Positions 691 to 22,925 of a DNA stretch of 34,814 nt are shown one piece after another. The notes under the pieces are model-generated. The model made no database searches. It saw nothing but the letters and a program-made list of their open reading frames with translations, and had not been told where the DNA came from. The stretch lies in the UHGV virus genome UHGV-0076394; one strand, written 5' to 3'. Origin of the DNA: a virus. The position numbers and the translations under genes are program-made. Position 1 is the first letter of the stretch. Each line of letters opens with the position of its first letter.

Positions 691-1743
691 TTACGGGGTA
701 ATGCCAACCGCTGCCGCCACTTTGTCGCCACTTGGCAGCGTTGCCAGAGGATTGAAACGGAGCGCCGTTTCCAGATGATCCGGTGCCAGATGTGCGTAAC
801 GCATAGTCATTTTTATATCGTGGTGTCCGAGAATTTTTTGTAAGGCCAGAATGTTTCCACCCGACATCATGAAGTGCGCCGCAAACGTATGGCGCAGAAC
901 GTGTGTGAGTTGACCGCGAGGGAGCACGATAGACGTTTTTTCCATCACGGATAAAAATTGAAAATAGCAGTCTGTGAAGAAATTGAACCCATCAAGCGCC
1001 ATGATCTCTTCGTAAAGCTCTTTACTGATAGGGATGCTTCTGTTTTTCTTCCCCTTCGTTCTTACAAAGGTAATTCGGTATTTGGTCACCTGTGAACGAG
1101 TAAGATTTACGGCTTCTCGCCAGCGTGCGCCTGTGCTTAAGCATATCTTAACTACCAGTGCTAGAATTGGGTCCTGACGTTTGCAATCAGCCAGTAATTC
1201 AACAATCTGCTCATGGGTAAGCCATGCCATCTCTTTTTCTGCGATGGTGAATTTTCGCATGTTCTCCAGTGGGTTCGGATACGACCATTCGCCCAGACGG
1301 GATAGTTCGCTAAAAACACTACTTAGATAGCTTTGCTCCAGGTTAATGGTGACCGGGCTTGCTCCTTTCTTCCATTTCTCGCTGAAGTAGATCTCGCCTG
1401 TCAGGCGTTTATCTCGATAGTGGGCAAACATTTTAGAGGTGAGATCGGTTGCAAGAGGATTGCCCAGAGCGTCAACCATCAGCAGCAATTTGTCATAGAC
1501 ATGCTGCCCAGCAGTCAGAGATTTACCATGTAGTTTGAACCATAGCTCAACCACGTCTTTCAGGGTTCGACGATCCACTGATTCGCCCAGCCATGGCTTT
1601 GATTCGGTTTCTTCCATAGTGTGACGCTCAAAAGCCAGAGCTTCGCCTTTGGTGGCGAATTGTTTACGCACACGACGCCCACTTCGTCCGGCGGGGTAAC
1701 ATTCGCAAAGCCATTTCCCTGTGGTGAGTTTTCGTACTGCCAT
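691..1743 (-). CDS. int: Tyrosine site-specific integrase (P2/186 type)
   Basis: ORF 691..1899 minus; C-terminal catalytic region with ARWREA, HVLRHTFA and MRYAHL motifs; start set to the internal ATG at 1743 (MAVRKLTTGKW...) which has a GGAGGG Shine-Dalgarno 8 nt upstream. Confidence 0.9.
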   Translation of the reverse strand: MAVRKLTTGKWLCECYPAGRSGRRVRKQFATKGEALAFERHTMEETESKPWLGESVDRRTLKDVVELWFKLHGKSLTAGQHVYDKLLLMVDALGNPLATDLTSKMFAHYRDKRLTGEIYFSEKWKKGASPVTINLEQSYLSSVFSELSRLGEWSYPNPLENMRKFTIAEKEMAWLTHEQIVELLADCKRQDPILALVVKICLSTGARWREAVNLTRSQVTKYRITFVRTKGKKNRSIPISKELYEEIMALDGFNFFTDCYFQFLSVMEKTSIVLPRGQLTHVLRHTFAAHFMMSGGNILALQKILGHHDIKMTMRYAHLAPDHLETALRFNPLATLPSGDKVAAAVGITP

Positions 1744-1931
1744 AAAAAATGCCCTCCAGTAGAGAGCATTTTTACTGTATGTATAACCAGTGTCAATGTA
1801 TGAAATCCTACGACCATACATCTCACTGAAGCCATAATGAAGTTGGCTATTCTTTTTGCTATGTGAGCATGTAACTTTTGCGGTTAACCTGCGGCTCATT
1901 TTTATTTTAGACGCAGATATAAAAGCAAAAG

Positions 1932-2123
1932 TTATCGTGAGTTTTTAGTACAGATTTTTTTGGATTTACTAATAGTTCCATCATTGCAAACGAATTTGCC
2001 ATCTGAGGTACAGTGAGAAACACCTCCCTTTTTCCCTGAGCAGGGATAATTTCTAGCATAGGTAGTTAGTGGGTTTAATAACAAAGAACATGACAAAACC
2101 ACAAAAAATACCTTACCAAGCAT
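1932..2123 (-). CDS. Small secreted cysteine-rich protein (63 aa) with N-terminal signal peptide; candidate lysogenic-conversion cargo
   Basis: Strong Shine-Dalgarno (GGGAGGAAA) before the ATG; hydrophobic signal-like N-terminus [23 protein letters not shown]; mature part has four Cys; AT-rich; sits between cI and int on the same strand. Confidence 0.5.
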
Positions 2124-2138
2124 AGTTTCCTCCCGGTA

Positions 2139-2714
2139 CTATTTAACATACTTGACTGTTAAACTTATAATTTTACCAATTATTTCAATGTCTTCTATCT
2201 TACATTCGAAGGCTCTGTTTCCACCCTCGACGAAGATTCTTCCACCGGGTAAACGAGTAATGTCACGGATCGTTACTTCGCCATCAATACTTATTACCCA
2301 TTTACCATCACGTATATCATCAAATTCTTTATCACAAATAAATTCAGAATTGTTATCTGTGATGACAAAAGGTTTTTTAAACGTAGAGGGTAGAAATCCC
2401 TTATCAAAAATATAAAAACCGTCTTCACGCAAGGCACCATCAGATAATACATATTTAGCAACTTCCATAGTATTTGTATTACCTGAAGTTTGCTTTGAAC
2501 CATGTCCGGTTGTGAGCCAATTAAGCGAGGTGCCCGTTTCAAGGGCGCACTGGATTACCCATTCTGCTGGGAATGAGTCACGCATGTAGCGTGTGGCGAG
2601 TGTACTTTTAGAGATTCCTAAATGATCGCACAACGCCTGTCGAGTTTTGAATCCATAAGCTTCTACCATGCGCTCTATAGCGCCTCGTCCGCCTTTCTCC
2701 AAATTCATGGTCAC
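2139..2714 (-). CDS. cI: CI-like immunity repressor (186 type)
   Basis: 191 aa; N-terminal HTH-like region (AYGFKTRQALCDHLGISKSTLATRY... CALETGTSLNWLTTG); position and orientation match phage 186 cI relative to int and apl. Confidence 0.75.
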   Translation of the reverse strand: MTMNLEKGGRGAIERMVEAYGFKTRQALCDHLGISKSTLATRYMRDSFPAEWVIQCALETGTSLNWLTTGHGSKQTSGNTNTMEVAKYVLSDGALREDGFYIFDKGFLPSTFKKPFVITDNNSEFICDKEFDDIRDGKWVISIDGEVTIRDITRLPGGRIFVEGGNRAFECKIEDIEIIGKIISLTVKYVK

Positions 2715-2833
2715 TCCAAGTGAACTTTTATCTTGACGATTTCATTGTGCGATCGTATGTTTATGGTGTTCACAAAATACAAACGATCCGTATTCGTCCT
2801 GATTAATCATCATTAAACGAGGAATGTTGCATC
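2715..2833. promoter_or_regulatory. Divergent early promoter/operator region between cI and apl (pR/pL-like switch region)
   Basis: 119-bp intergenic region between divergent cI and apl/cox genes; contains TTGACG and A/T-rich -10-like hexamers and repeated ACGAT-containing elements; by analogy to the 186/P2 lysis-lysogeny switch. Confidence 0.5.
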
Positions 2834-3055
2834 ATGAGACCTAACATTTCAATCACTCTTACCACGCCTCATGTGACTATTGAGCGCTATAGCGAGCTGA
2901 CAGGGCTGTCCATCGATACCATCAATGACATGTTGGCTGACGGACGCCTTATCCGTCACCGTTTGCGCAAAGATAAAAAACGCGAAAAAGTGATGATCAA
3001 CATAGCAGCCATGACCGTTGATGCGCTTTCAGAATGCAATCTAAACCTTAATTAG
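2834..3055 (+). CDS. Apl/Cox-like small DNA-binding excisionase and switch regulator
   Basis: 73-aa basic protein encoded first in the rightward early operon, divergent from cI; the slot occupied by apl in 186 and cox in P2. Confidence 0.6.
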
Positions 3056-3087
3056 TTCGATTCTGAAATACATCAGAGGCATTGACC

Positions 3088-3597
3088 ATGTTTGATTACC
3101 AAGTTTCCAAACATCCACATTTTGATGAAGCCTGTCGTGCATTTGCACTGCGCCACAATCTGGTGCAACTGGCAGAACGTGCAGGCATGAATGTGCAGAT
3201 TCTGCGGAACAAGCTGAACCCAGCTCAGCCTCATCTATTAACCGCACCAGAAATCTGGCTGCTTACCGATCTGACTGAAGATTCAACGCTGGTAGATGGT
3301 TTTCTGGCACAGATTCATTGTCTGCCATGTGTACCGATTAATGAGGTGGCAAAAGAGAAACTGCCACATTACGTCATGAGTGCAACCGCAGAGATCGGGC
3401 GTGTTGCTGCAGGTGCGGTATCTGGCGATGTAAAAACCAGTGCAGGTCGTCGTGATGCTATCAGCAGCATTAACTCTGTAACACGACTGATGGCGTTGGC
3501 TGCTGTTTCATTGCAGGCCCGTTTACAGGCTAACCCTGCGATGGCGAGTGCAGTTGATACCGTGACCGGCCTCGGTGCTTCATTCGGTTTGCTGTGA
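3088..3597 (+). CDS. cII: CII-like lysogeny establishment regulator (186 CII type)
   Basis: ATG at 3088 with AGAGG Shine-Dalgarno; 169 aa; position after apl; recalled similarity to 186 CII ([19 protein letters not shown]... [23 protein letters not shown]). Confidence 0.7.
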
Positions 3598-4888: not shown

Positions 4889-5742
4889 GCACCATCCTGA
4901 AATGGGCGGGAAATAAAACTGCCATAATGTCCGAACTGAAAAAACATCTTCCTGCTGGCCCGCGACTGGTTGAACCTTTCGCGGGTTCCTGTGCTGTGAT
5001 GATGGAGACGGATTATCCCAGCTATCTGGTTGCGGATATTAATCCTGATTTAATCAACCTCTATAAAAAGGTTGCCGCTGATTGTGAATCGTTTATATCT
5101 CGCGCCAGAGTTTTATTTGAGATCGCAAACAGGGAGGTGGCTTATTACAACATAAGGCAGGAGTTTAATTACTCAACTGAAATTACTGATTTCATGAGAG
5201 CGGTATATTTCCTGTATCTCAATCGTCACGGTTACCGTGGTTTATGTCGCTATAACAAGAGCGGGCATTTCAACATTCCCTACGGTAATTATAAAAATCC
5301 GTATTTCCCTGAAAAAGAAATTCGCGCATTTGCAGAAAAGGCCCAGCGAGCAACGTTTATCTGCGCCAGCTTTGATGAAACGCTGGCGATGTTGAAGGCG
5401 GGGGATGTGGTGTATTGCGATCCGCCGTATGACGGTACGTTTTCCGGCTATCACACTGACGGCTTCACTGAAGATGACCAGTATCACCTGGCATCTGTTC
5501 TTGAACATCGGTCATCAGAAGGACATCCGGTCATTGTTTCTAACAGTGACACATCCCTGATCCGTTCGCTGTATCGCAATTTTACTCACCACTACATCAA
5601 GGCAAAACGCAGCATCGGTGTGGCAGCTGGCGAGGGTAAATCAGCAACAGAAATCATTGCTGTTTCCGGGCCGCGCTGCTGGGTGGGATTTGATTATTCG
5701 CGTGGCGTGGATAGTTCTGCCGTGTACGGAGTACGTGCATGA
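4885..5742 (+). CDS. dam: DNA adenine methyltransferase (Dam-like, N6-adenine, D12 class)
   Basis: Start at the internal ATG 4885 (GGAGG Shine-Dalgarno; ATGA overlap with the upstream stop); N-terminal LKWAGNK, AdoMet-binding EPFAGS and catalytic DPPY motifs. Confidence 0.85.
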
Positions 5743-8153
5743 GTCATGCCGATATGAACAACTGCTGCGGCTTTAACGAAGCTGCCGCATCGTTCTCATG
5801 GAACAGCCCGAAAAAGGCCATTAACCCTTATCTGGACCCGGTGGAAGTTGCGCCGGTTTCTACGCTTTCAAACCTGATCACTCTGTACGCTGCCGATAAC
5901 GAGCAGGAACAGCTGCGCCGTGAGGCGCTGAGTGATCAGGTTTGGGAGCGTTATTTCTTTAATGAATCCCGTGATCCTGTCCAGCGCGAAATGGAACAGG
6001 ATAAGCTCATTAGTCGGGCAAAGCTGGCGCATGAGCAGCAGCGTTTTAATCCGGATATGGTCATTCTGGCGGACGTCAACGCCCAGCCTTCCCATATCAG
6101 CAAGCCGCTGATGCAACGTATTGAATACTTCAGCAGCCTGGGCAGGCCAAAGGCTTATTCCCGCTATTTACGTGAGACGATTAAGCCATGTCTGGAACGA
6201 CTGGAGCATGTACGCGACAGTCAGCTATCTGCATCTTTTCGCTTTATGGCAAGCCATGAAGGGCTGGACGGCCTGCTGATCCTGCCTGAAATGAGTCAGG
6301 ATCAGGTGAAACGCCTGTCCACCCTGGTAGCTGCGCATATGAGTATGTGCCTTGATGCCGCTTGTGGCGATTTGTATGCCACCGATGACGTTAAGCCAGA
6401 AGAAATCCGCAATACATGGGAAAGGGTGGCAGCGGAAACCCTGCGTCTGGATGTCATCCCGCCTGCGTTTGAGCAACTCCGTCGGAAAAGAAACCGCCGT
6501 AAACCCGTGCCCTATGAACTCATTCCGGGTTCGCTGGCGCGTATGTTGTGCGCCGACTGGTGGTATCGGAAATTATGGAAGATGCGTTGCGAATGGCGGG
6601 AAGAGCAGTTGCGTGCAGTCTGCCTTGTCAGCAAAAAAGCATCTCCTTATGTCAGCTATGAAGCCGTGATGCATAAACGTGAGCAGCGCCGTAAGTCGCT
6701 GGAGTTTTTCCGTTCTCATGAACTGGTGAACGAAGACGGCGACACGCTGGACATGGAGGATGTGGTAAACGCCAGCAGCAGCAACCCAGCGCATCGCCGC
6801 AATGAGATGATGGCCTGTGTTAAAGGTCTGGAGCTTATCGCGGAAATGCGCGGTGACTGCGCCGTTTTCTACACCATCACCTGTCCGTCACGTTTCCATT
6901 CCACGCTAAATAACGGCAGGCCCAACCCAACCTGGACAAATGCGACGGTAAGACAAAGCAGTGATTATCTGGTCGGCATGTTTGCTGCATTTCGTAAGGC
7001 GATGCACAAAGCCGGATTGCGGTGGTATGGCGTGCGGGTGGCTGAGCCGCATCATGACGGTACAGTTCACTGGCACCTGTTGTGTTTTATGCGCAAAAAA
7101 GACCGCCGCACCATCACTGCATTACTGCGTAAGTTTGCCATCCGTGAAGACCGCGAGGAGCTGGGCAATAACACTGGGCCGCGCTTTAAGTCTGAGTTGA
7201 TTAACCCGCGCAAAGGTACGCCAACAAGCTACATCGCGAAATACATCAGTAAGAACATTGACGGGCGTGGTCTGGCTGGCGAGATCAGCAAGGAAACGGG
7301 GAAATCCCTGCGTGATAATGCTGAATACGTTAATGCCTGGGCGTCTCTGCATCGTGTTCAGCAATTCCGCTTCTTTGGCATTCCGGGGCGTCAGGCTTAC
7401 CGTGAACTGCGATTGCTGGCTGGTCAGGCGGCAAGGCAACAGGGGGACAAAAAAGCAGGTGCGCCGGTACTGGATAACCCGCGCCTTGATGCCATTCTGG
7501 CTGCTGCTGATGCTGGTTGTTTTGCCACCTACATCATGAAGCAGGGTGGCGTACTGGTTCCCCGCAAATATCACCTCATCAGAACTGCTTATGAAATCAA
7601 CGAAGAGCCGACCGCCTATGGCGATCACGGCATTCGTATTTATGGCATCTGGTCACCTATTGCAGAGGGCAAGATCTGCACTCATGCCGTGAAGTGGAAA
7701 ATGGTTCGTAAGGCCGTTGACGTTCAGGAGGCGGCAGCCGACCAGGGCGCTTGCGCCCCTTGGACTCGTGGCAATAACTGTCCCCTTGCTGAAAATTTGT
7801 ACCAACAAGGGAAAGACAAATCAGCTGATGGGGATACCAGAACGGATATCACCCGTATGGATGACAAGGAGTTGCACGATTACCTGCACAGTATGAACAA
7901 AAAAGAACGCCGGGAACTGGCTGCAAGGTTACGCCTGGTGAAACCGAAACGGCGTAGAGACTACAAACAGCGAATTACAGACCATCAACGACAGCAGCTC
8001 GTCTATGAACTGAAGTCCAGAGGATTTGATGGCAGCGAGAAAGAGGTCGATTTACTCCTTCGCGGCGGCAGCATTCCGTCAGGAGCAGGCCTGCGTATTT
8101 TCTATCGGAACCAGCGTTTGCAGGAAGATGATAAGTGGCGGAACCTGTATTAA
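5739..8153 (+). CDS. A: Replication initiation endonuclease (P2 gpA / 186 A family, rolling-circle initiator)
   Basis: 804 aa; ATGA overlap with dam; HxH metal-binding motif (VHWHLLCF) and Tyr-containing segment (YIAKYISK) typical of gpA-type nickases. Confidence 0.85.
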
Positions 8154-8739: not shown

Positions 8740-9123
8740 GAAACGTTGCTGGCGTCTGAACTTGCTTCTGGCGTCAGCAAGGTTGAACAACGAGCTATGC
8801 GAGGCGTTAGCCATCTGATCAAAAGACATCAAATATCATATTGTATATCGTGGTCAAACGCTGGAAACAATCATTCCCGATCAGAGGGGCTTCTTTCAAT
8901 GTCCAAAAGAGTGAGATAGAGGATACAGGATGGGAAGAGCTTTTGATTAATTATCGTCCAAGTTTTTCAAAAGCTTCTTATCTGGCGGTCGATACATGAT
9001 TTACTGTTGGATATGGTATTTAAAATTAATCTTTACACTGTGGTATATGCAGAATAGGATATTATCAATACAATCAAACTGTTTTCATACGGTTATTAAT
9101 ATTGCAATGTTATAGGTAATGTC

Positions 9124-10242
9124 ATGTATCTTTTCAAGTATTACCGTCCGGACTTCTTCTTCGAGAAAGCTATTCGTTATAATGAATTATATTTTTCCGC
9201 TCCTGCGCAATTGAATGATCCCAATGATCTCAATATAGATTATCGCTTCGATAATAAATTGAAATTATGGGATATTTTATTGCGTTCTCCTTGCGATAAA
9301 TCCTATAAAAATTTGAGTCACATATTGGATTTGAGTAATTTGAAAATACATAAGGGATTGAATCGTATTTTTAGAGGAAAAAAAATAAAAAGTAGCATTG
9401 AGTCATTAGATAGCCTGTTTGACTCACACGTTGATGAGATACGTAAGATCATAGATGATGGTTTACTACCTATCAATGTGATTAATTCTGCTATTTATGG
9501 AAATATTCCTGAACCACGCCAATATTTGGTTTCACTTTGCGAGAACAGTATCAAAGAAAGGTTGTATAGGAAAATAGTTCCTGCAGTATTCAGTGTGTCA
9601 TTTTCAGCTAATGCGTTAGATCGTATGATGTGGGCGCATTATGCTGCTGGCTTTAGTGGTTGTGTTGTGATTTATGAAACGCAGGATTTTAATATTGATG
9701 GTATACCCTATACTGGAATGAAGCTAAGAGAAAATTTATTTTCATCAGATAAATTTAATTTTCCAGTTAAGCCAATAAAATATAGTAATCAGGCTAAAGA
9801 GGTTTCACTTCTAGACCCAAGCGCAAATGTTGCAGAGTTATTTTTAACTAAAAATAGATTTTGGAGATATGAAGCTGAATATCGAATGTTTATTCCGGAG
9901 GCAAATGCAGGAATAGGGAGTGAGCGGCATGTTCAAAGACGCGTAAATCGAAATATTGGACATATTTTTCATCATGATGCTAATGTTGTTAAAGGGATCA
10001 TTTTTGGTCCTAGAATGTGTGAAATGAAAAAAGAAAGCATATGGAATTGTATCAAGTCAAATATGGAGAATTCAAATTCAACAATATGTTATTTTTTTGA
10101 CTCTGAGTTATCAGCATCAGGAAAGATTACTATTTCAAAAGGGCAACGAGCGGAAAAAATGAAAAATTTCACTTTGTTCAGGAACAAGTTAAGTCAGACG
10201 GAAATGGCTAAAGTTTTGAAGGAAATTGGCATTACGAACTAA
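9124..10242 (+). CDS. DUF2971-like protein (372 aa), AT-rich accessory gene
   Basis: N-terminus MYLFKYYR...NELYFSAPAQLNDPNDL and internal MWAHYA / FWRYEAEYR motifs as recalled for DUF2971; strongly AT-rich compared with flanking phage genes. Confidence 0.6.
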   Translation: MYLFKYYRPDFFFEKAIRYNELYFSAPAQLNDPNDLNIDYRFDNKLKLWDILLRSPCDKSYKNLSHILDLSNLKIHKGLNRIFRGKKIKSSIESLDSLFDSHVDEIRKIIDDGLLPINVINSAIYGNIPEPRQYLVSLCENSIKERLYRKIVPAVFSVSFSANALDRMMWAHYAAGFSGCVVIYETQDFNIDGIPYTGMKLRENLFSSDKFNFPVKPIKYSNQAKEVSLLDPSANVAELFLTKNRFWRYEAEYRMFIPEANAGIGSERHVQRRVNRNIGHIFHHDANVVKGIIFGPRMCEMKKESIWNCIKSNMENSNSTICYFFDSELSASGKITISKGQRAEKMKNFTLFRNKLSQTEMAKVLKEIGITN

Positions 10243-10308
10243 CCTAACAACAGTGCATGCCTATGCTGCCTGAATTTGCATGACCGTTTGAGGATCGTTT
10301 TTGCTAAG

Positions 10309-10332
10309 GCCCGCCAGAACTGGCGGGCTTTT
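10309..10332 (+). terminator. Rho-independent terminator GCCCGCCAG-aa-CTGGCGGGC-TTTT
   Basis: Perfect 9-bp GC-rich stem, 2-nt loop, followed by TTTT; 67 nt downstream of the DUF2971-like gene stop. Confidence 0.7.
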
Positions 10333-10377
10333 GCGTGGATCAGGCACCTGCATGAAAACCACTACACAAAGCGGGTA

Positions 10378-10396
10378 GGCGTGGCGGGGATACGAG
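10378..10396. other. Candidate cos (cohesive end) core GGCGTGGCGGGGATACGAG
   Basis: First 13 nt equal the start of the 19-nt cohesive end recalled for phage 186 (GGCGTGGCGGGGA...); lies in a GC-rich backbone-like segment between the two AT-rich cargo genes; not verified. Confidence 0.3.
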
Positions 10397-10472
10397 CGCG
10401 CGGAAGCAGTTTCACATATAATTCGATTGGTGTAATCTGAGCTACAACTTAAGAAAAGAGGATGAGTTAATC

Positions 10473-12212
10473 ATGGAATTGCACGCATATACTAGAACCA
10501 TATCAGAATTACTTTCTGTTAATAGAAAATATGTTGTTCCAAGATTTCAACGCGAATATTCTTGGGTAAAAGAACAAATTAATGAGCTTTGGTACGATGT
10601 AATATCTAATATAAAATTAGAGAGTGATTTCACATATTCTAATAATGAGTATTTTATTGGTTCTTTAGTTTTGGTTGGAGATGAAACAGGAAGGGAGATG
10701 CAAATAGTTGATGGTCAGCAACGACTTACAACTCTTACAATTTTTCTTTCCGTTTTATGCGAGGCGTTCAAATCAAACAATCAATCAGATTTAGCGTCTG
10801 CCCTATTTGAAAATTATATTGAAGGTCGTGATGATGATGGTAAGAAATTCTTTAAATTAATAAATGAAACGCCTAAACCTTTTTTTCAGAAAAATATCCA
10901 GCATATTAATAAGGCAGATGACATCCCACAGACACAAGAAGAGCGAAATCTCTTGTCAGCATATAAAGAAATTACATCGTTAGCCTCAAAGGAAAAGTTG
11001 GAAAAATATTTTTCAGTAGAAATTAATACTGAGGATAATTATTCCAGTGTATTAAAGGCAATTAGGGATCAGATTTTAAGATTCCTAAAGATAATTTTCA
11101 TTACTGTTAATGAAGAGGACGAGGCGTATACAATATTTGAAACATTAAATGCTAGAGGGATGAATTTAAGTTTTGTAGATTTAATCAAAAATAAATTATT
11201 TAAAGCGTTAAATGACCCACATCCAAATGATGATGCAAAAGATAATTGGAAGGCTATACGTACTACTTTAATGCAAAGAAATGGTGTAGGGACTTTTGAG
11301 AATTACATGAGGCACTGGTGGGTGTCGAAGTATGCTTATGTGAGCAATGAAAATCTTTATAAATCCTTTATTGGCAAATGGCGTAAGGGGGAAATTAATC
11401 CGGCAACCTTTATTGACGAATTGAAACAGGATGCCGAATTGTATGTACGCTTGTCATCTCCTTTGGAGAGTGATTATCCACAAATGGAAGACAAACAGTT
11501 ATTTCATTCGTTGAATGCAATTAGGCTATTTGGTATAACACAGTGTAGACCTTTTTTATTAGCCTTACTAAAGGCGAAGCAGCAAAAGAGATTACGTCAA
11601 TGTGATCTTTTAAAAGCAGTTAAATATATTGAAAATTTTCATTTTGTATTTAATGCGGTATGTTCATTAAGACCGTCAGGGATAGAAGGAGCATATTCTA
11701 AGGCCGCAAGATCTATAAATTCACCAAATGCTACAAAAGCAACTAATGGAACAACAATTGACCAGTTATGTATGTTGTTGAGTAATCGCAAGCCGGAAAT
11801 TTCTGTATTTACTGAACATTTTAGGGATATATTGTTTACTGATGACAACTCCAAACAAAAAAGATTAGTTCAATATATTATAAATAAATTTGAAATGGCC
11901 CGTCATAATGGAGATGAGTATCGTCCTAATTCTATCTCTTTAGAACATGTAATGCCTCAAAGTGCTGGCGACGATAAGGAAATAGGAATGGTTGGAAATA
12001 TAATCCCCCTGTCAAAAGAACTTAATGAGCAAGCTGGTGATAAATCATTGGCACAAAAGCTTTCTATCTATTCTCAATCGGAGTTTAGATTGACAGAAGA
12101 GTTTGTTAGTGAACTTGAAACCATTTACCATAATGAATGGAATCTCCAGTCTATTATTCAGAAGACGGATAGGATGGCTGGTGAGGCTTATATGATTATT
12201 TGGAGTCATTAA
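10473..12212 (+). CDS. DUF262/DUF1524 two-domain nuclease (GmrSD-like type IV restriction family)
   Basis: N-terminal DUF262 signatures VPRFQREYSW and DGQQRLTTL; C-terminal DUF1524-like His-Me segment SLEHVMPQS...GNIIPLSKELN; AT-rich. Confidence 0.75.
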   Translation: MELHAYTRTISELLSVNRKYVVPRFQREYSWVKEQINELWYDVISNIKLESDFTYSNNEYFIGSLVLVGDETGREMQIVDGQQRLTTLTIFLSVLCEAFKSNNQSDLASALFENYIEGRDDDGKKFFKLINETPKPFFQKNIQHINKADDIPQTQEERNLLSAYKEITSLASKEKLEKYFSVEINTEDNYSSVLKAIRDQILRFLKIIFITVNEEDEAYTIFETLNARGMNLSFVDLIKNKLFKALNDPHPNDDAKDNWKAIRTTLMQRNGVGTFENYMRHWWVSKYAYVSNENLYKSFIGKWRKGEINPATFIDELKQDAELYVRLSSPLESDYPQMEDKQLFHSLNAIRLFGITQCRPFLLALLKAKQQKRLRQCDLLKAVKYIENFHFVFNAVCSLRPSGIEGAYSKAARSINSPNATKATNGTTIDQLCMLLSNRKPEISVFTEHFRDILFTDDNSKQKRLVQYIINKFEMARHNGDEYRPNSISLEHVMPQSAGDDKEIGMVGNIIPLSKELNEQAGDKSLAQKLSIYSQSEFRLTEEFVSELETIYHNEWNLQSIIQKTDRMAGEAYMIIWSH

Positions 12213-12221
12213 TAGTTGAAA

Positions 12222-12248
12222 GCCCTATTATTATATCAATGATAGGGC
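12222..12248. terminator. Hairpin GCCCTAT-N13-ATAGGGC between convergent genes (possible bidirectional terminator)
   Basis: 7-bp inverted repeat in the 45-bp gap between the nuclease stop and the portal stop, flanked by A/T runs. Confidence 0.35.
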
Positions 12249-12257
12249 AATTTAATT

Positions 12258-13289
12258 CTACTCTAACACGTAATTACTAAATGAAATTATCGGTTTCTTA
12301 ATCCATTTGTTTAATTCGTGTATGCGTTTTTGTAAGGGAATTAACTCGTTTCTTACAAAAACCTTACTAGCCTTCTCCACATCCCCAAACCCCCCGACAT
12401 TACTAGGCATTATCCCCATCATTTGTGGCGGCACGCGGTGCGCAGCCATCATGTCATCACGGCTCACGTTTTTGATATTCAGAAACTCATCCTTCGCTGC
12501 GACTTCTGACAACGGGATGATCTGAAGCCCGTCCTTTTTGCCGTTAGGCGAGTACATAAACAGGTTGCGGAAGTTACCTGGGCCTTTGGCGCTTTTCATC
12601 GCATTACGGAGGTTGTTCACATCCTCCTGGTTCTGCGCGGCATCGGTCATGTACATGATGAAGCCAGCATGACTACCGTTAATGTAATACTTCCGGCGGA
12701 ACAGCGTGGCGGACTCGTTGAGCAAAGCGGATGGGATGGCAGAAAGATAGCCGGGCAGGCCGTAGATCTCCTGATTAATATCCGGTTCCATCAGATGAAA
12801 AATGCTGCCTTTTGTGAACTGATACGGCTGGGTTGTCATACCGTATTGCACAAACCAGTAGGTATCCAGGTCTAACCCGCGTCGGGTGTATTTCGCCAGG
12901 GCAGGTTCAAGGGCGATCACTTCACCGAAGCGGTTCGTGCGTTTCTCCAGGTAGGCGTTACCAAATACCAGATAGTCCTGCACAAAACGTGAAAACGCCT
13001 GCTGGCTGAGCAGCGGATGAGGGATGTAGGTGCTGGTCAGTATGTTGCACTTTACGGCAATCGGTGAGCTGTGGTGCACGGCGGCGCGAAAGGTTCGCGC
13101 CAGCCCGTCGAAACTCACTGGTGGCTCATACCAGCGGTCCATCTGTACGCATTCCACATAATCCAGCAGTTCTCGGCGGTCCAGAACAGGAACGGGATCG
13201 CCGAAGCTGAATGCTTCGGCTGAAGTCTGGTTTTTATGCTGGATCTGTTTCGTCGCCGCAGCGCGGTTTTTCTTACTCTTTCCCATCAA
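12258..13289 (-). CDS. Q: Portal protein (P2 gpQ family)
   Basis: 343 aa, leftward, immediately downstream of the large terminase with overlapping stop/start; conserved order and size for P2 Q. Confidence 0.85.
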   Translation of the reverse strand: MMGKSKKNRAAATKQIQHKNQTSAEAFSFGDPVPVLDRRELLDYVECVQMDRWYEPPVSFDGLARTFRAAVHHSSPIAVKCNILTSTYIPHPLLSQQAFSRFVQDYLVFGNAYLEKRTNRFGEVIALEPALAKYTRRGLDLDTYWFVQYGMTTQPYQFTKGSIFHLMEPDINQEIYGLPGYLSAIPSALLNESATLFRRKYYINGSHAGFIMYMTDAAQNQEDVNNLRNAMKSAKGPGNFRNLFMYSPNGKKDGLQIIPLSEVAAKDEFLNIKNVSRDDMMAAHRVPPQMMGIMPSNVGGFGDVEKASKVFVRNELIPLQKRIHELNKWIKKPIISFSNYVLE

Positions 13290-15052
13290 AAAATCTCCAC
13301 AATATTGCTGGTATTGGCGGACTCGCCCTGCAGCGGTTCGTTAAACAGTGCGTGCATTGTTGCCCAGGCCAGATCGGCATGGCTGGCTTCTTCGCTGCGG
13401 CTGGCTTCATAGGTCGGGCGGTTGCCGCTGGCGGTGGTGGCGCGGCGGATTGCCATAAATGACTGCGCTATGTCGGTGTGTCCGGCGTCAAACTCCAGAC
13501 GGCGGTGGCTGATAATGTCATAGGCCTTGAGTACCAGGGCGTTTTTAACATTGGGGTTGTAGACAAACTCCCGGACGGCAGGAAAGAACGCTTTCACGTT
13601 CTCATAAACTCCGTGACCGACACCTGTCGAGTCGATGCCGATATAAGTCACGTTGTACTGTTCGGTCAGTTTTTTGATGGCGTCAGCCTGGGCGCGAAAG
13701 TCCATCCCGCGCCACTGGTGACGCTCAAGAATGCGAAACTTGCCGCCCGGCACGGCTGGCGGTGCCACCACCACGCATCCGGCGCTGTCGCCGTTCTGCG
13801 TACCTTTGGCCGGGTCATAACCGATCCACACTTCGCGCCAGCCAAACGGGCGCAGTGCCAGTGCATGAAAGTCGGTCCAGACTTCCCAGCTGTCCACCAT
13901 GCACGCCTGCAGCTCGCTGAGCGGGAACACGGACGCGAGATCGTCCACGAACTCGCACATCAGCAGGTTTTGGTATTCGTCCGGGCTGTACTCCATGCGT
14001 AGCTGGTCGAGGTCGAACAGGTTACAGCCGCCGCGCACCGCATCTTCCACGGTGACTATCTGGCGGTATTGCCCGTCAGCGCACAGCAGGCCGGGGGCCA
14101 GATTGTTGTGGGACAGGTCGATGTCCACCTTATCGGCTTTGTTGCGTCCACGGTTGAACAGCGCACCGGACCAGAACGGATAAGCACTGTGGGTCAGGCT
14201 GGATGGCGTGGAAAAATAGGTTTGTCGCCATTTTTTGTGAATAGCCATACCGGAAGCCACTTTGCGCAGCTCCTGGAATTTCGGTATCCAGAAATATTCA
14301 TCCAGATACAGGTTGCCGTGGTAACTCTGGGCCGTGCGGGCATTGGTGCCGAGGAAGTAAAGCGTGGCCCCGTTAGGAAGCACCATCGGATCGCCTTTCA
14401 GCTCCACCTCCACTTCTTTGGCGAAGTCGATGATGTACTGCTTAAAGACGTGGGCCTGTGCCTTACTGGCGGAAAGGAAAATCTGGTTACGCCCGGTAAG
14501 CAGGGCGTCAATCAGGGCTTCACGGGCAAAGTAAAAGGTCGCGCCGATCTGGCGTGACTTCAGCAGGTTGCGGATGCGGTTGGTTTTTCCGGCTTCCCAC
14601 CAGTGGCGCTGGTAGTTGAACATGGAGGAATGGAAGATTTCTTCCAGCTTCTCAATCTGCTCATCGGTGAAAACATTCTTTTCCGGCTGACGGCGTGGGC
14701 CTTTGTTGCGGTTGGCGACGTTAGGGTTTAAGTCGGCTTCGTTGCCGCCATTGTTAAACTTGCCGATCCGCGCGTGGCGCTCCGACTGGCGCGCCAGCAG
14801 GTCAATCTCTTTGAAATCTTTCCCTTCTTTGTGCTCCTTCATGATGAGCTGGCAGTAGCGTGCGGTGGTGGTGAGCTGCATCTGATCCAGCGGCCCATAG
14901 TCACCCCACTTGTCGCGTTTTTTCCAGCTGTGAACGGTTGCAACTTTCTCGCCCAGCATTTCAGCTATGCGGGCTACGCGGTATCCCTGAAAGTACAGCA
15001 GCATGGCCTGCCGACGGGGATCGAGATCTGCGGGTGTCAGTGTGGTGTTCAT
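13286..15052 (-). CDS. P: Terminase large (ATPase) subunit (P2 gpP family)
   Basis: 588 aa; Walker A-like SRQIGATFY; divergent from the O N M L operon as in P2. Confidence 0.85.
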   Translation of the reverse strand: MNTTLTPADLDPRRQAMLLYFQGYRVARIAEMLGEKVATVHSWKKRDKWGDYGPLDQMQLTTTARYCQLIMKEHKEGKDFKEIDLLARQSERHARIGKFNNGGNEADLNPNVANRNKGPRRQPEKNVFTDEQIEKLEEIFHSSMFNYQRHWWEAGKTNRIRNLLKSRQIGATFYFAREALIDALLTGRNQIFLSASKAQAHVFKQYIIDFAKEVEVELKGDPMVLPNGATLYFLGTNARTAQSYHGNLYLDEYFWIPKFQELRKVASGMAIHKKWRQTYFSTPSSLTHSAYPFWSGALFNRGRNKADKVDIDLSHNNLAPGLLCADGQYRQIVTVEDAVRGGCNLFDLDQLRMEYSPDEYQNLLMCEFVDDLASVFPLSELQACMVDSWEVWTDFHALALRPFGWREVWIGYDPAKGTQNGDSAGCVVVAPPAVPGGKFRILERHQWRGMDFRAQADAIKKLTEQYNVTYIGIDSTGVGHGVYENVKAFFPAVREFVYNPNVKNALVLKAYDIISHRRLEFDAGHTDIAQSFMAIRRATTASGNRPTYEASRSEEASHADLAWATMHALFNEPLQGESANTSNIVEIF

Positions 15053-20169: not shown

Positions 20170-20563
20170 AGCGGTGCCTTATGTCCGCAATAACCCGGAC
20201 AAATTGCATCTGTTTGTGGATAACGGTTCGCTGGTTGCCACGGGGGCCAGCTCCATGTCGTGGGAGTACCGTTACACCCTGAACGCGGTGATTGAGGATT
20301 TCAGCGGCGACCAGAATCTGCTGATGGCCCCGGTTTTGCTGTGGCTGCGTGATAACCAGCCCGATGCCATCAATAACCCGGCGTTACGGGAAAAGTTATT
20401 CACCTTTGAGGTGGATATTCTGCGCAATGATGTCTGTGATATCAGCCTGAACCTGCAACTGACGGAGCGTGTGCTGGTCAGCACTGACGGGAGTGTGTCG
20501 AGTGTTGAAGCGGTAGCGGAACCCGATGAACCTGATGAAATGTGGACGGTGAAACGTGGCTGA
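20132..20563 (+). CDS. R: Tail completion protein (P2 gpR family)
   Basis: Probable GTG start at 20132 with AGGAG Shine-Dalgarno; ...LHLFVDNGS...RYTLNAVIEDFSGD...VLLWLRDNQPD... resembles gpR. Confidence 0.75.
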   Translation: MNKPQSLRHALNKAVPYVRNNPDKLHLFVDNGSLVATGASSMSWEYRYTLNAVIEDFSGDQNLLMAPVLLWLRDNQPDAINNPALREKLFTFEVDILRNDVCDISLNLQLTERVLVSTDGSVSSVEAVAEPDEPDEMWTVKRG

Positions 20564-21002
20564 ACTGCAGAAGGTGGACGACTGGCTGAGTGCCTTGCTG
20601 GCGAATCTGGAGCCAGCCGCAAGAAGCCGCATGATGCGCCAGCTGGCGCAGGAACTGCGCCGGACACAGCAGCAGAACATCAGGATGCAGCGCAATCCAG
20701 ATGGCAGCAGTTATGAGCCGCGACGGGTAACAGCACGCAGCAAAAAGGGGCGCATCAAACGTCAGATGTTTACAAAGCTGCGCACCACAAAATACCTGAA
20801 AACTGCCGCCAGCGCCGATTCTGCCAGCGTGCAGTTTGAAGGTAAGGTGCAGCGCATTGCCCGCGTTCATCACTACGGCCTGCGTGATCGCATCAGTCGA
20901 AGAGGACCGGAGGTCCGTTACGCAGAGCGTCGTCTCCTAGGCGTAAATGATGATGTGGAAACTGTCATTCAGGATGCTTTGCTAAATTGGTTACAGAGAT
21001 AA
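20556..21002 (+). CDS. S: Tail completion / virion morphogenesis protein (P2 gpS family)
   Basis: 148 aa; GTG start overlapping the R stop; conserved position. Confidence 0.75.
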   Translation: MAELQKVDDWLSALLANLEPAARSRMMRQLAQELRRTQQQNIRMQRNPDGSSYEPRRVTARSKKGRIKRQMFTKLRTTKYLKTAASADSASVQFEGKVQRIARVHHYGLRDRISRRGPEVRYAERRLLGVNDDVETVIQDALLNWLQR

Positions 21003-21028
21003 ATAAAACCACATTTATAAAATTTAGT

Positions 21029-21895
21029 TTACTTTTTACTGATAAATGGATTCCTATCAATCCATGAGTCCCAGTTTATATAATTGTCATCAAATCCTAT
21101 GAATTTCATTAGTACAAGTGGCACCAGTAAATTCAAATTTGATGAGTAATCTTGAATTTCAATTTTGCCATCTGAGTTTTTTTCATCAAGATAGGCAATG
21201 TATTTACCATTGTGGAACAGCGAGTGACGGAGTTTGCAGTAATGCATAATGTTTCTTTGAGCTAATGTATGTCCTGTTTTTTCGACATTAAAACCATATT
21301 CTTTTAAAACCTGAGTGATTATTTGTGGTGTTTTGGCAGGGGAGTAGTCATTTTTAATAAATCTGCAAAGTGCTTCTAGTGCCGAGAATAATAAATAATA
21401 TCTGACGTCGATATAATTTATTGAGTCGCGGAAAGCTAGCATTGATTTAAAAAATGATGTTCTAAAGGCATCTTGTTTTAGCATGGCTTTACTATTTAGT
21501 TTTTCCATGGCTAAGCAAATAAAATTTTCTCGGCTGTTTGGTGCAAAATAATCTTCCATGATGATAATGCCCGCACCCTTATCTCTTTTTTTGTCAAGCT
21601 TTTTGGGTAGAGATGGTTTGAAATTGAAAGGGGTTTCATCATTTTCAAGTTCTCCTGAAATGATTACATTTTTTTGTTCAATAAAACTAAGAACTGCTTG
21701 TAAATCAAAAATAAGCTGCTGTTGAGTGGCGTAGTTATTCGAGTTTGGTTTGAAAAAACCAGTGAGGATGTACCTATCATTAGCCCAGCCATTTTTTTTT
21801 AACTCACTCCATGAACTGAAAATAGGAGTTAACTCACCACCGTCAAATGTGATTTTTTTAGTGAAATTAAATCCATAAATTGCGATTTGTGTCAT
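21029..21895 (-). CDS. AT-rich accessory protein (289 aa) with R-x4-H motif; candidate HEPN/Abi-like defence protein
   Basis: Minus-strand gene inserted between S and V; ATG at 21895 preferred over 21943; contains CKLRHSLFHNG (R-x4-H); markedly AT-rich. Confidence 0.55.
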   Translation of the reverse strand: MTQIAIYGFNFTKKITFDGGELTPIFSSWSELKKNGWANDRYILTGFFKPNSNNYATQQQLIFDLQAVLSFIEQKNVIISGELENDETPFNFKPSLPKKLDKKRDKGAGIIIMEDYFAPNSRENFICLAMEKLNSKAMLKQDAFRTSFFKSMLAFRDSINYIDVRYYLLFSALEALCRFIKNDYSPAKTPQIITQVLKEYGFNVEKTGHTLAQRNIMHYCKLRHSLFHNGKYIAYLDEKNSDGKIEIQDYSSNLNLLVPLVLMKFIGFDDNYINWDSWIDRNPFISKK

Positions 21896-21924
21896 CTTAA
21901 ATACCTTAGAAATTGTTTCTCTTT

Positions 21925-21942
21925 TGTATGGTTCTCCATACA
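21925..21942. promoter_or_regulatory. TGT-N12-ACA dyad (TGTATGG-ttct-CCATACA), candidate late promoter pV activator site
   Basis: Perfect 7-bp inverted repeat conforming to TGT-N12-ACA about 50-65 nt upstream of the V start codon, in the short region shared with the divergent cargo gene. Confidence 0.45.
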
Positions 21943-21990
21943 TACGCTCTGTATTACATCACTCTACCCGGTTGTGCAAGGATCGCTCTC

Positions 21991-22569
21991 ATGAACGCAC
22001 AATTAACCGAAATCATGCGCCTTATCACCAACCTGATCCGCACTGGGGTAGTCACCGAAGTGGACCGGGAAAACTGGCTTTGCCGGGTGAAAACGGGCGA
22101 CCTTGAAACCAACTGGATCAGCTGGCTGACGCTGCGTGCCGGGAATGCCCGCACATGGTGGCGACCATCGGAAGGTGAGCAGGTAGTGCTGCTGAGTCTG
22201 GGCGGCAATCTGGAGACTGCCTTTGCGCTGCCCGCTGTCTATTCGAATCAGTTCGCACCACCGTCGAAGTCGGCGGACGCCTGCGTGACAGAACATCCTG
22301 ACGGTGGCTGGTTTGAATACGAACCCGCCACCGGGCGCTGGTATGTCAGGGGCATCAAATCAATGGTCATTGAGGCCGCTGACAACATCACCATGAAAAC
22401 CAGTGAGTTTGTACTGGAGGCTGACCGCACGCGTATTAACAGCGAAGTAGTGATCAATGGTGGCGTTACCCAGGGCGGCGGTGCGATGAGTTCTAACGGA
22501 ATTGTGGTTGATGCACATCAGCATACTGGCGTCCTGAAAGGCGGCGACACAACCGGAGGCCCGGTATGA
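21991..22569 (+). CDS. V: Baseplate spike / assembly protein (P2 gpV family)
   Basis: Start at ATG 21991 (MNAQLTEIMRLITNLIRTG...); ...WLTLRAGNARTWWRPSEGEQV...SNG..H.H match recalled gpV features. Confidence 0.85.
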   Translation: MNAQLTEIMRLITNLIRTGVVTEVDRENWLCRVKTGDLETNWISWLTLRAGNARTWWRPSEGEQVVLLSLGGNLETAFALPAVYSNQFAPPSKSADACVTEHPDGGWFEYEPATGRWYVRGIKSMVIEAADNITMKTSEFVLEADRTRINSEVVINGGVTQGGGAMSSNGIVVDAHQHTGVLKGGDTTGGPV

Positions 22570-22925
22570 CGCTTTATAGCGGGATGAACAATACCAGCGG
22601 TAAAGCCATTACTGATATTGACCATCTGCGCCAGTCGGTGCGGGACATTCTGCTGACACCGCAGGGTAGCCGCATTGCCCGTCGTGAATATGGTTCTCTG
22701 CTGTCGGCACTGATAGACCAGCCACAAAATCCAGCATTACGCCTGCAGGTCATGTCGGCAGTGTATGTGGCGCTGAGTCGCTGGGAGCCACGGCTGACGC
22801 TGGACTCCATCACCATCAACAGTAATTTTGACGGTTCAATGGTGGTGGAGCTGACCGGGCGGCGTAATAACGGTGTGCCTGTTTCCCTTTCCGTATCAAC
22901 AGGAGCAGAGAATGGCAGTGATTGA
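22566..22925 (+). CDS. W: Baseplate protein W (gp25-like, P2 gpW family)
   Basis: 119 aa; ATGA overlap with V; conserved order. Confidence 0.8.
   Translation: MTLYSGMNNTSGKAITDIDHLRQSVRDILLTPQGSRIARREYGSLLSALIDQPQNPALRLQVMSAVYVALSRWEPRLTLDSITINSNFDGSMVVELTGRRNNGVPVSLSVSTGAENGSD

Follow-up and report, generated by a model that had tools for sequence, protein, structure and literature searches.

Introduction

The described systems closest to the gene studied here are prophage-borne single-protein HEPN nucleases that act by abortive infection, namely HepS (PMC13043305), ApeA (10.64898/2026.01.26.701840) and DARNA/PD-T7-3 (10.64898/2026.02.22.705581). HepS, encoded by the Gifsy-1 prophage of Salmonella Typhimurium, is a standalone HEPN protein of less than 250 aa (STM14_3211) that carries an R-x4-6-H site and has no partner gene. 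It resides in an accessory slot of a temperate Salmonella phage, is constitutively present, is triggered by a tail-tip protein and brings about abortive infection by cleavage of tRNA anticodons (PMC13043305). ApeA, a single-gene HEPN defence system from Gao et al. 2020, comprises ~580 aa in three mostly helical domains (N-terminal, Mid and a split HEPN domain with insertions), assembles into decamers or dodecamers and responds to deoxydinucleotides, its N-terminal domains and the HEPN domain jointly forming a regulatory pocket (10.64898/2026.01.26.701840). DARNA is an abortive-infection tRNase of 456 aa from the E. coli mobilome, which combines sensor and effector in one chain, the HEPN domain being located at the N-terminus and a Pds5-like helical domain that senses SSB-presented ssDNA at the C-terminus (10.64898/2026.02.22.705581). 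HEPN domains also constitute the HepT-type toxins (PDB 5yep, 7ae2, 8xdj) and HI0074/TTHA0636, which are ~130 aa long and encoded beside an AMPylating MNT antitoxin. According to a 2013 survey, the signature of a catalytic HEPN domain consists of an R-x4-6-H that closes helix 3, with a polar N, D or H after the arginine, and of an upstream acidic residue in the form of E-x3-[KR] on helix 2, while R-x4-6-H is typically lost in non-catalytic HEPN domains (PMC3710099).

In P2-like phages, the orf30 position has been described, along with the TO and Z regions, as a locus of horizontally acquired genes (PMC3091744; PMC6823313). In P2 itself the orf30 position lies between the late genes S and V and holds Orf30, a protein of 261 aa annotated as nonessential, whose minus-strand gene is flanked by the terminator that follows S and by the activator site of P_V. 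Published analyses of defence hotspots in P2 name the gpA-portal (old/tin), Z/fun and tail-CI loci; the S-V slot is not named in Rousset 2022, Vassallo 2022 or iLund4u 2024, and a 2026 preprint added a hotspot "downstream of GpL / within the late genes", which it resolved no further. To our knowledge, the S-V slot is thus known for horizontal gene transfer and has not been singled out in the literature as a defence hotspot.

In this study, we analysed the occupant of the S-V slot in the virus genome UHGV-0076394, a stretch of 34,814 nucleotides referred to as the window in the following. An earlier note on this DNA had drawn attention to an AT-rich minus-strand gene wedged between S and V and had proposed it as a candidate single-gene, HEPN-like phage-defence protein. 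We herein describe gene, slot, protein family and predicted structure, and compare them with the systems introduced above.

Results

The gene, which we refer to as the cargo gene, is an open reading frame that starts with ATG and encodes 288 aa plus a stop codon (Table 1). The minus-strand frame had been recognised correctly before, its reported length of 289 aa having counted the stop codon. Given the local composition, a frame of 288 codons would stay open by chance with P ~2e-10. An alternative ORF of 304 aa is possible from an ATG at 21943; we prefer the downstream ATG at 21895, because the matching MT... position is where nearly all homologues start and because it is preceded by a Shine-Dalgarno sequence. 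The foreign, AT-rich composition that had been noticed at first sight is evident from a GC content of 0.33 compared to about 0.56 in the flanks, and on a larger scale from 0.31–0.35 across 21000–22000 compared to 0.55–0.60 on both sides.

Table 1. Positions of the cargo gene, its encoded domains and motifs, and neighbouring features in the window (positions refer to the first letter of the window as 1).
Feature	Position	Strand	Basis or remark
gpS-like tail completion / virion morphogenesis gene, flank	20556..21002	+	
Exchanged module versus empty-site relatives, approximate (S 3' end, cargo, P_V region)	20955..21990	.	
Spacer between convergent stops of S and cargo gene, 26 bp	21003..21028	.	
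Cargo gene, 288-aa two-domain protein	21029..21895	-	ORF; PHROG 4373 full-length match 2e-142
Conserved C-terminal tail F268-D-D-x3-N-W-x2-W278	21062..21094	-	
HEPN-like helical domain, residues ~118-265	21101..21544	-	
R223-H-S-L-F-H228, R-x4-H catalytic-type motif, C-terminal end of helix 216-229	21212..21229	-	
E174-A-L-C-R178, E-x3-[KR] motif of HEPN helix 2	21362..21376	-	
Alpha/beta domain at the N-terminus, residues 1-~117; sensing or regulatory role proposed	21545..21895	-	
Shine-Dalgarno AAGG, 8 nt upstream of 21895 ATG	21904..21907	-	sequence reading
TGT-N12-ACA dyad TGTATGGTTCTCCATACA, expected Ogr-type activator box of late promoter P_V	21925..21942	+	
gpV-like baseplate assembly gene, flank	21991..22569	+	ATG at 21991

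The cargo gene converges with S, the distance between the two stops being 26 bp and not 27 bp as previously given, and it diverges from V, as the earlier note had stated, with 95 bp between its start and the V ATG. A scan detected no intrinsic terminator in the 26-bp spacer; in the P2 annotation a terminator is present at the corresponding place after S. Since none was detected in between, late transcription via S could enter the cargo gene in antisense direction. On the other side, the dyad expected to activate P_V has its centre ~57 bp before the V ATG and has counterparts in the annotated P2 activator site and in TGTATCAGCACTGATACA of Klebsiella phage 4LV2017. A consensus scan upstream of the cargo gene gave no sigma-70-like promoter, and expression in the lysogen is therefore assumed. 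By eye, a weak promoter candidate TTGCAC-N15-TGTAAT can be seen on the minus strand at ~21951–21977, on which we do not rely.

The nearest sequenced phages, Klebsiella phage 4LV2017 and Escherichia phage 500465-1, lack ~0.9 kb at this site, while their flanks are ~95% identical to those of the window, and megablast covers only these flanks, 55% of 20400–22700 in two pieces. From the alignment with 4LV2017, the exchanged segment comprises the last ~15 codons of S and all that follows up to the start codon of V. The late promoter region lies inside this segment, the window and 4LV2017 each having a box of their own (TGTATGGTTCTCCATACA and TGTATCAGCACTGATACA, respectively).

The notion that V directly succeeds S in P2-type genomes, from which the earlier note had started, is untrue for P2, where Orf30 lies in between. 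The variable occupancy that it had asked to have confirmed is, however, clearly visible from a census of 80 IMG/VR loci chosen for 97% or higher identity of their V protein to that of the window, 78 of which were interpretable with S and V. In 58 of these 78 loci (74%) the S-V gap is empty and ~77 bp long, and in the other 20 it is occupied by 11 unrelated cargo types of 0.56–2.25 kb. A universal gene with a structural role, which the note had named among the findings that would speak against its proposal, is not what is seen, since 74% of the near-identical tail modules do without any cargo. All 11 alternative cargo types have a GC content of 0.31–0.36 and all but one are located on the minus strand; the family of the present protein is absent from the 20 occupied slots among the 78 loci with near-identical V.

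Only four of the 11 alternative cargo types are recognisable defence genes, and P2 Orf30 is not among the recognisable ones either. The four comprise PARIS, with AriA (418 aa, 7.6e-39) and AriB/DUF4435 (285 aa, 4e-22) at locus L084, an AbiU/AIPR protein (566 aa, 1.7e-24) at loci L082, L087 and L091, a SIR2_2-domain protein (402 aa, 1.4e-21) at locus L055 and a PDC-S15/FRG-domain protein (311 aa, 8.5e-32) at locus L092. Among the other occupants are three proteins of transmembrane appearance as well as two, of 245 aa and 393 aa, that have R-x4-H strings. Kinship of the cargo protein with these two was rejected by hhalign at a probability below 1% each, and the same holds for P2 Orf30 and for the cargo of Cartapus, an unrelated 176-aa gene in the same slot (again below 1% each). 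The cargo gene of the window thus combines the attributes of defence-hotspot cargo in P2-like phages, i.e. a variably occupied site, foreign GC content and known defence systems at the same site in other prophages. As a side result, the S-V slot, judged by the genes found in it, behaves as a defence hotspot.

Against Pfam, NCBIfam and PADLOC the cargo protein gave no match even at E<=10, and no curated HEPN family profile was matched significantly. The PHROG family that it matches, phrog_4373, is annotated as "unknown function". A word-indexed search of 5.8 billion proteins returned 78 relatives, all of them named "hypothetical", and an exhaustive search with a profile, covering 1.84 billion representatives, returned 194 proteins at E<=0.001, in which nearly all full-length members share the same ~280-aa two-domain layout. 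By these searches the family is small and closed. When 60 members were scanned singly, HEPN_Apea (Pfam) and Cas13-ApeA (PADLOC) were the sole families matched by more than one member, with 3 of 60 each and a best E of about 0.005, which is sub-threshold, and the HEPN_Apea signal was not recovered in ten further, most divergent members. Membership in the ApeA clade is consequently not claimed. Comparison of the family sequence profile with PDB chains returned nothing and a Foldseek search of the structural model against the PDB returned nothing significant; the structural similarity is highest to the HEPN toxins of HepT/MNT-type toxin-antitoxin pairs. We found no literature naming accession WP_001579974.1 or PHROG 4373. 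With no Pfam, NCBIfam or PADLOC match, the name "hypothetical" in every source and no paper, the earlier suspicion that the gene may be undescribed proved well placed. The protein is a candidate for an uncharacterised new family of a known kind, the prophage single-protein HEPN abortive-infection nucleases.

An AlphaFold2 model calculated from the family alignment (pLDDT 89.8, pTM 0.89) divides the protein into an N-terminal alpha/beta domain, for which no specific structural relative was found, and a HEPN-like helical domain with helices 121–134, 143–156, 162–181, 189–199, 216–229 and 248–265 and a beta-hairpin at 233–246. E174 and R178 are located on helix 162–181, and R223 to H228 form the C-terminal end of helix 216–229. 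The four-helix up-down core of HEPN domains is present in the model, and the motif ends helix 3 and leads into the connection to helix 4. According to the model, the C-terminal ~60% of the cargo protein has a HEPN RNase fold with conserved residues of catalytic type. The part that had been called unrecognisable, the N-terminal two thirds, is actually restricted to ~40% (residues 1–~117), and the HEPN part is correspondingly larger than the one third implied before.

The string CKLRHSLFHNG, from which the HEPN assignment had originated, is present and contains R223-x4-H228. Among shuffles of the cargo protein 34% contain some R-x4-6-H and 13% contain R-x4-H. Because of this frequency the string alone is weak evidence, and the weight of the motif therefore rests on conservation and structure. 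In a set of 60 homologues with identities to the window protein down to 18%, R223 and H228 are each kept in 59, which answers positively the question of motif conservation raised with the original proposal. At position 224, directly after the arginine, 52 of the 60 have N, 4 have H and 3 have D; E174 is kept in 59 and R/K178 in 58. In an alignment of 39 sequences, E174, R178, R223, L226, F227 and H228 are all invariant. Beyond the HEPN-like domain, the C-terminal tail follows the consensus GFDDxxINWxxWxDRxPF, in which F268, D270 and W275 do not vary among the 39 aligned sequences and W278 is kept in 55 of the 60 homologues.

The S-V slot holds homologues of the cargo protein, again in the same orientation, in Klebsiella phage ST437-OXA245phi4.1 (Gegevirus, 57% identity) and Salmonella phage RE-2010 (Felsduovirus, 35% identity), and the family recurs in this slot across three genera of P2-like phages. 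The gene occurs in prophages of Salmonella, E. coli, Klebsiella and Citrobacter, the exact protein being abundant in Salmonella enterica, with 306 cluster members and at least 1000 contigs, and found also in E. coli and Citrobacter. The identical E. coli gene, WP_001579974.1 ("hypothetical protein"), sits between S and V in a P2-like prophage and was found in 24 of 5,426 complete E. coli genomes, each time as a single chromosomal copy; two E. coli strains carry an allele disrupted by IS1. Outside this slot, the more distant members, at ~40% identity, are lone genes, and two of them are associated with integrases. The one from Halomonas adjoins a true integron integrase (TIGR02249, 399 bits) followed by a cassette-like array, and the one from Vibrio lies beside an integrase in an island. 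The Klebsiella member is located near a resolvase at the edge of a prophage remnant, and the members from Acinetobacter and Shewanella stand solo among housekeeping genes. Neither a conserved neighbour gene nor an MNT-type antitoxin gene was found near the S-V slot homologues or in these five other contexts, and the cargo locus contains neither tandem repeats nor an Rfam RNA. Consequently, the cargo protein must act alone.

Discussion

By analogy with the described systems, we consider it rather probable that the gene is foreign cargo in the S-V slot which encodes a self-contained, single-protein abortive-infection nuclease of the HEPN type. Fold, motif and genomic context uphold the HEPN-like defence protein of the earlier note as a candidate, and it is from these that we infer its activity. 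Of the four findings that the note had listed as speaking against its proposal, the three open to computation were looked for, and none of them was seen. The conserved catalytic-type residues would be expected to confer metal-independent RNase activity at a composite site in a dimer.

We propose a model in which the gene would have been acquired horizontally into the variable S-V (P2 orf30) slot of a P2-like prophage. The lysogen would then make the protein in an inactive, probably oligomeric form, in which the N-terminal alpha/beta domain, possibly together with the FDD..NW..W tail, keeps the enzyme off and senses an infection cue. Activation would expose the R223/H228 site, helped by E174/R178 and probably composed across the HEPN dimer, and would lead to cleavage of host RNA without the need for a metal, with tRNA anticodon loops as the most likely target and mRNA as another. 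Translation would stop, and with it the replication of the rival phage, resulting in abortive infection. For the prophage's own lytic cycle, read-through from S in antisense direction into the cargo gene may be considered a speculative route to self-compatibility.

A more far-reaching reading, which we put forward tentatively and do not expect to hold in all its parts, is that the protein would be the founding member of a compact 288-aa HEPN abortive-infection family with a novel cue and that the S-V slot would be a true defence hotspot. The cue would then be unlike those of HepS, ApeA and DARNA and would be sensed by the N-terminal domain together with the FDD..NW..W tail, and the hotspot would be additional to the old/tin and Z/fun loci.

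Other explanations were weighed against the same evidence. A selfish toxin or addiction HEPN RNase, which would stabilise the prophage or mobile element or arrest growth upon stress, is unlikely, even though the closest structural similarity is to HepT/MNT-type HEPN toxins, members of the family are carried on mobile elements and in integron cassettes, and the IS1-disrupted allele of two E. coli strains might be expected of a costly gene. The search for an antitoxin gave no candidate, be it a conserved neighbour, an MNT gene, tandem repeats or an Rfam RNA, and the other recognised cargos of the slot are defence systems and not toxin-antitoxin pairs. It should be noted that the boundary between toxin-antitoxin systems and abortive infection is blurred, and that a toxin of this kind would overlap with the abortive-infection nuclease that we favour.

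We also regard it as improbable that the protein uses a HEPN-like fold for purposes other than RNA cleavage, as an accessory that binds a ligand or nucleic acid in lysogenic conversion or as a regulator, with R and H serving for binding. The full set of R, polar residue, H and E-x3-R is near-invariant at 18–80% identity, which argues against such a role, as does the typical lack of R-x4-6-H in non-catalytic HEPN domains (PMC3710099).

An RNA or nucleotide enzyme that benefits the phage itself, either in counter-defence against cyclic oligonucleotides or against P4-type satellites or host RNAs, would be in agreement with the position of the cargo gene inside the late region, adjoining the P_V promoter, with the ability of some HEPN enzymes to degrade cyclic oligoadenylate signals (10.64898/2026.02.22.705581), and with a 2026 P2/P4 survey reporting Anti_RM and Anti_CRISPR in 28 P2-like prophages. 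We nevertheless judge it quite improbable, since the cargo gene is transcribed against the direction of both late operons and is missing from most near-identical phages, since homologues in an integron cassette or solo on the chromosome suit a host-protective gene better, and since the sister cargos are defence and not anti-defence genes. A role in tail structure or morphogenesis on which the phage lineage would depend, with the position between S and V as its sole support, is effectively refuted by the variable occupancy, the gene being absent from 74% of the prophages with near-identical V and from the closest sequenced phages, and is contradicted as well by the opposite strand, the foreign GC content, the non-phage homologues and the annotation of P2 Orf30 at the same position as nonessential.

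If the cargo gene indeed encodes a self-contained abortive-infection nuclease, a new and very compact sensor-plus-HEPN family would join the single-protein nucleases of this class. The mechanisms of HepS, ApeA and DARNA have been understood only recently, and a further infection cue could come to light through the new sensor domain. The S-V (orf30) slot would at the same time represent a defence hotspot of P2-like phages that is small, sharply bounded and easy to mine, and from which PARIS, AbiU, SIR2 and PDC-S15 are obtained in addition to about six cargo types without assigned function. With its wide occurrence in Salmonella (at least 1000 contigs), E. coli, Klebsiella and Citrobacter, the gene could therefore affect host range in phage therapy.

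In comparison with known systems, the other occupants of the slot, including P2 Orf30, share with the cargo gene the position, the convergent orientation towards S and divergent orientation from V, the AT-rich composition and the dispensability for the phage. The proteins are unrelated, however, so that the slot is common to them and the gene family is not. The HepT-type toxins have an MNT neighbour that the cargo gene lacks, and the cargo protein differs from them by its extra N-terminal domain, a beta-hairpin insert after the motif and the C-terminal tail. For HEPN proteins of the AbiF/AbiD type, neither an Abi_2 Pfam match nor tandem repeats nor an Rfam family was found for the cargo.

ApeA resembles the cargo protein as a single-gene HEPN defence with non-HEPN domains at the N-terminus, which in ApeA take part in regulation. 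At 288 aa and with an alpha/beta N-terminal domain, the cargo protein is about half as long and of different build, and it matches neither HEPN_Apea nor the PADLOC ApeA model. With DARNA it has in common the proposed union of sensor and effector in one chain; the order of the two is reversed, and no match was obtained from PADLOC, whose library carries PD-T models, e.g. PD-T7-2. HepS is probably the best model for the working of the cargo protein, given that both are prophage-encoded lone HEPN proteins with an R-x4-6-H site and without a partner gene. Unlike HepS, the cargo protein carries the additional ~117-aa N-terminal domain and the C-terminal tail and is encoded in the tail region of a P2-like phage; no PDB sequence or fold match of it was labelled HepS. 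The cargo protein thus did not turn out to be a member of ApeA, DARNA, HepT/MNT or AbiF/AbiD, and in the way it would work it is most like HepS, ApeA and DARNA.

Results and discussion

Comparison of positions 20955-21990 of the window with the empty-site relative Klebsiella phage 4LV2017 showed that the exchanged segment takes in the last ~15 codons of tail gene S as well as the whole promoter region of the late V operon. The TGT-N12-ACA box expected for an Ogr-type activator differs between the two variants of this segment, so that exchanging the cargo between S and V gives the V operon a different late promoter as well. From IMG/VR loci L015-L094, in which occupants were read from the gap immediately upstream of the V match, we found 11 unrelated, AT-rich cargo types in this slot of near-identical P2-like prophages, including recognisable systems (see table) and about six unknown cargos of 393, 262, 314, 250, 245 and 146 aa, which are themselves candidates for new systems.

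Two of these, the 245-aa cargo (L059) and the 393-aa cargo (L019, L023, L080 and L089), carry R-x4-H-type strings, RRDTGVH and RDKIAH, close to their C-termini. Both are possible additional HEPN-like occupants of the S-V slot; by hhalign they are unrelated to the PHROG 4373 family of the window's cargo, and neither Pfam nor PADLOC gave a significant match. The 189-aa cargo of locus L086 and CARTA_14 (176 aa) of Escherichia phage Cartapus, both located in the slot, have the C-terminal string NWKIKIDLFPFCQ in common and appear to form a single family, to which no function is assigned.

Occupants of the S-V slot and features around the second AT-rich island
Feature	Position	Strand	Locus or remark
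PARIS	S-V slot		L084
AbiU	S-V slot		L082, L087, L091
SIR2 protein	S-V slot		L055
PDC-S15/FRG	S-V slot		L092
804-aa ORF	5739-8153		window; gpA position, one flank of island
Island ORFs	9124-10242 and 10473-12212	+ (both)	window
ORFs at portal/terminase position	12258-15052	-	window; other flank of island

Another AT-rich island of the window (9000-12600, GC 0.31-0.40) occupies the well-known old/tin hotspot. Its products are a 372-aa PDC-S31 protein (PADLOC, E 1e-23) and a 579-aa HEC-06/DUF262 GmrSD-like protein (E 1e-90), and the prophage thus carries further candidate defences besides the S-V cargo.

An identical cargo gene in E. coli strain 61 (NZ_CP048326.1; positions 1501-3143 of locus L096) carries an IS1 insertion behind nucleotide 720 (codon 240), accompanied by a target duplication of 8 bp, and strain 64 has the same insertion. 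Since the conserved C-terminal tail is lost together with predicted helix 4 of the HEPN domain, the allele is probably null, which suggests that the gene is dispensable or costly.

In Halomonas (L005/L006, 6693-16800), a homologue with 42% identity directly adjoins an integron integrase gene that is transcribed divergently (TIGR02249, 399 bits). After the homologue come several small genes, all on the same strand (cupin, acetyltransferases, DUF6998), an arrangement that resembles a chromosomal integron with the homologue as its leading cassette.

In P2 a terminator is annotated at the corresponding position, but in the window the stretch separating the convergent S and cargo genes (21003-21028) showed no intrinsic terminator, so that late transcripts may run antisense across the cargo gene.
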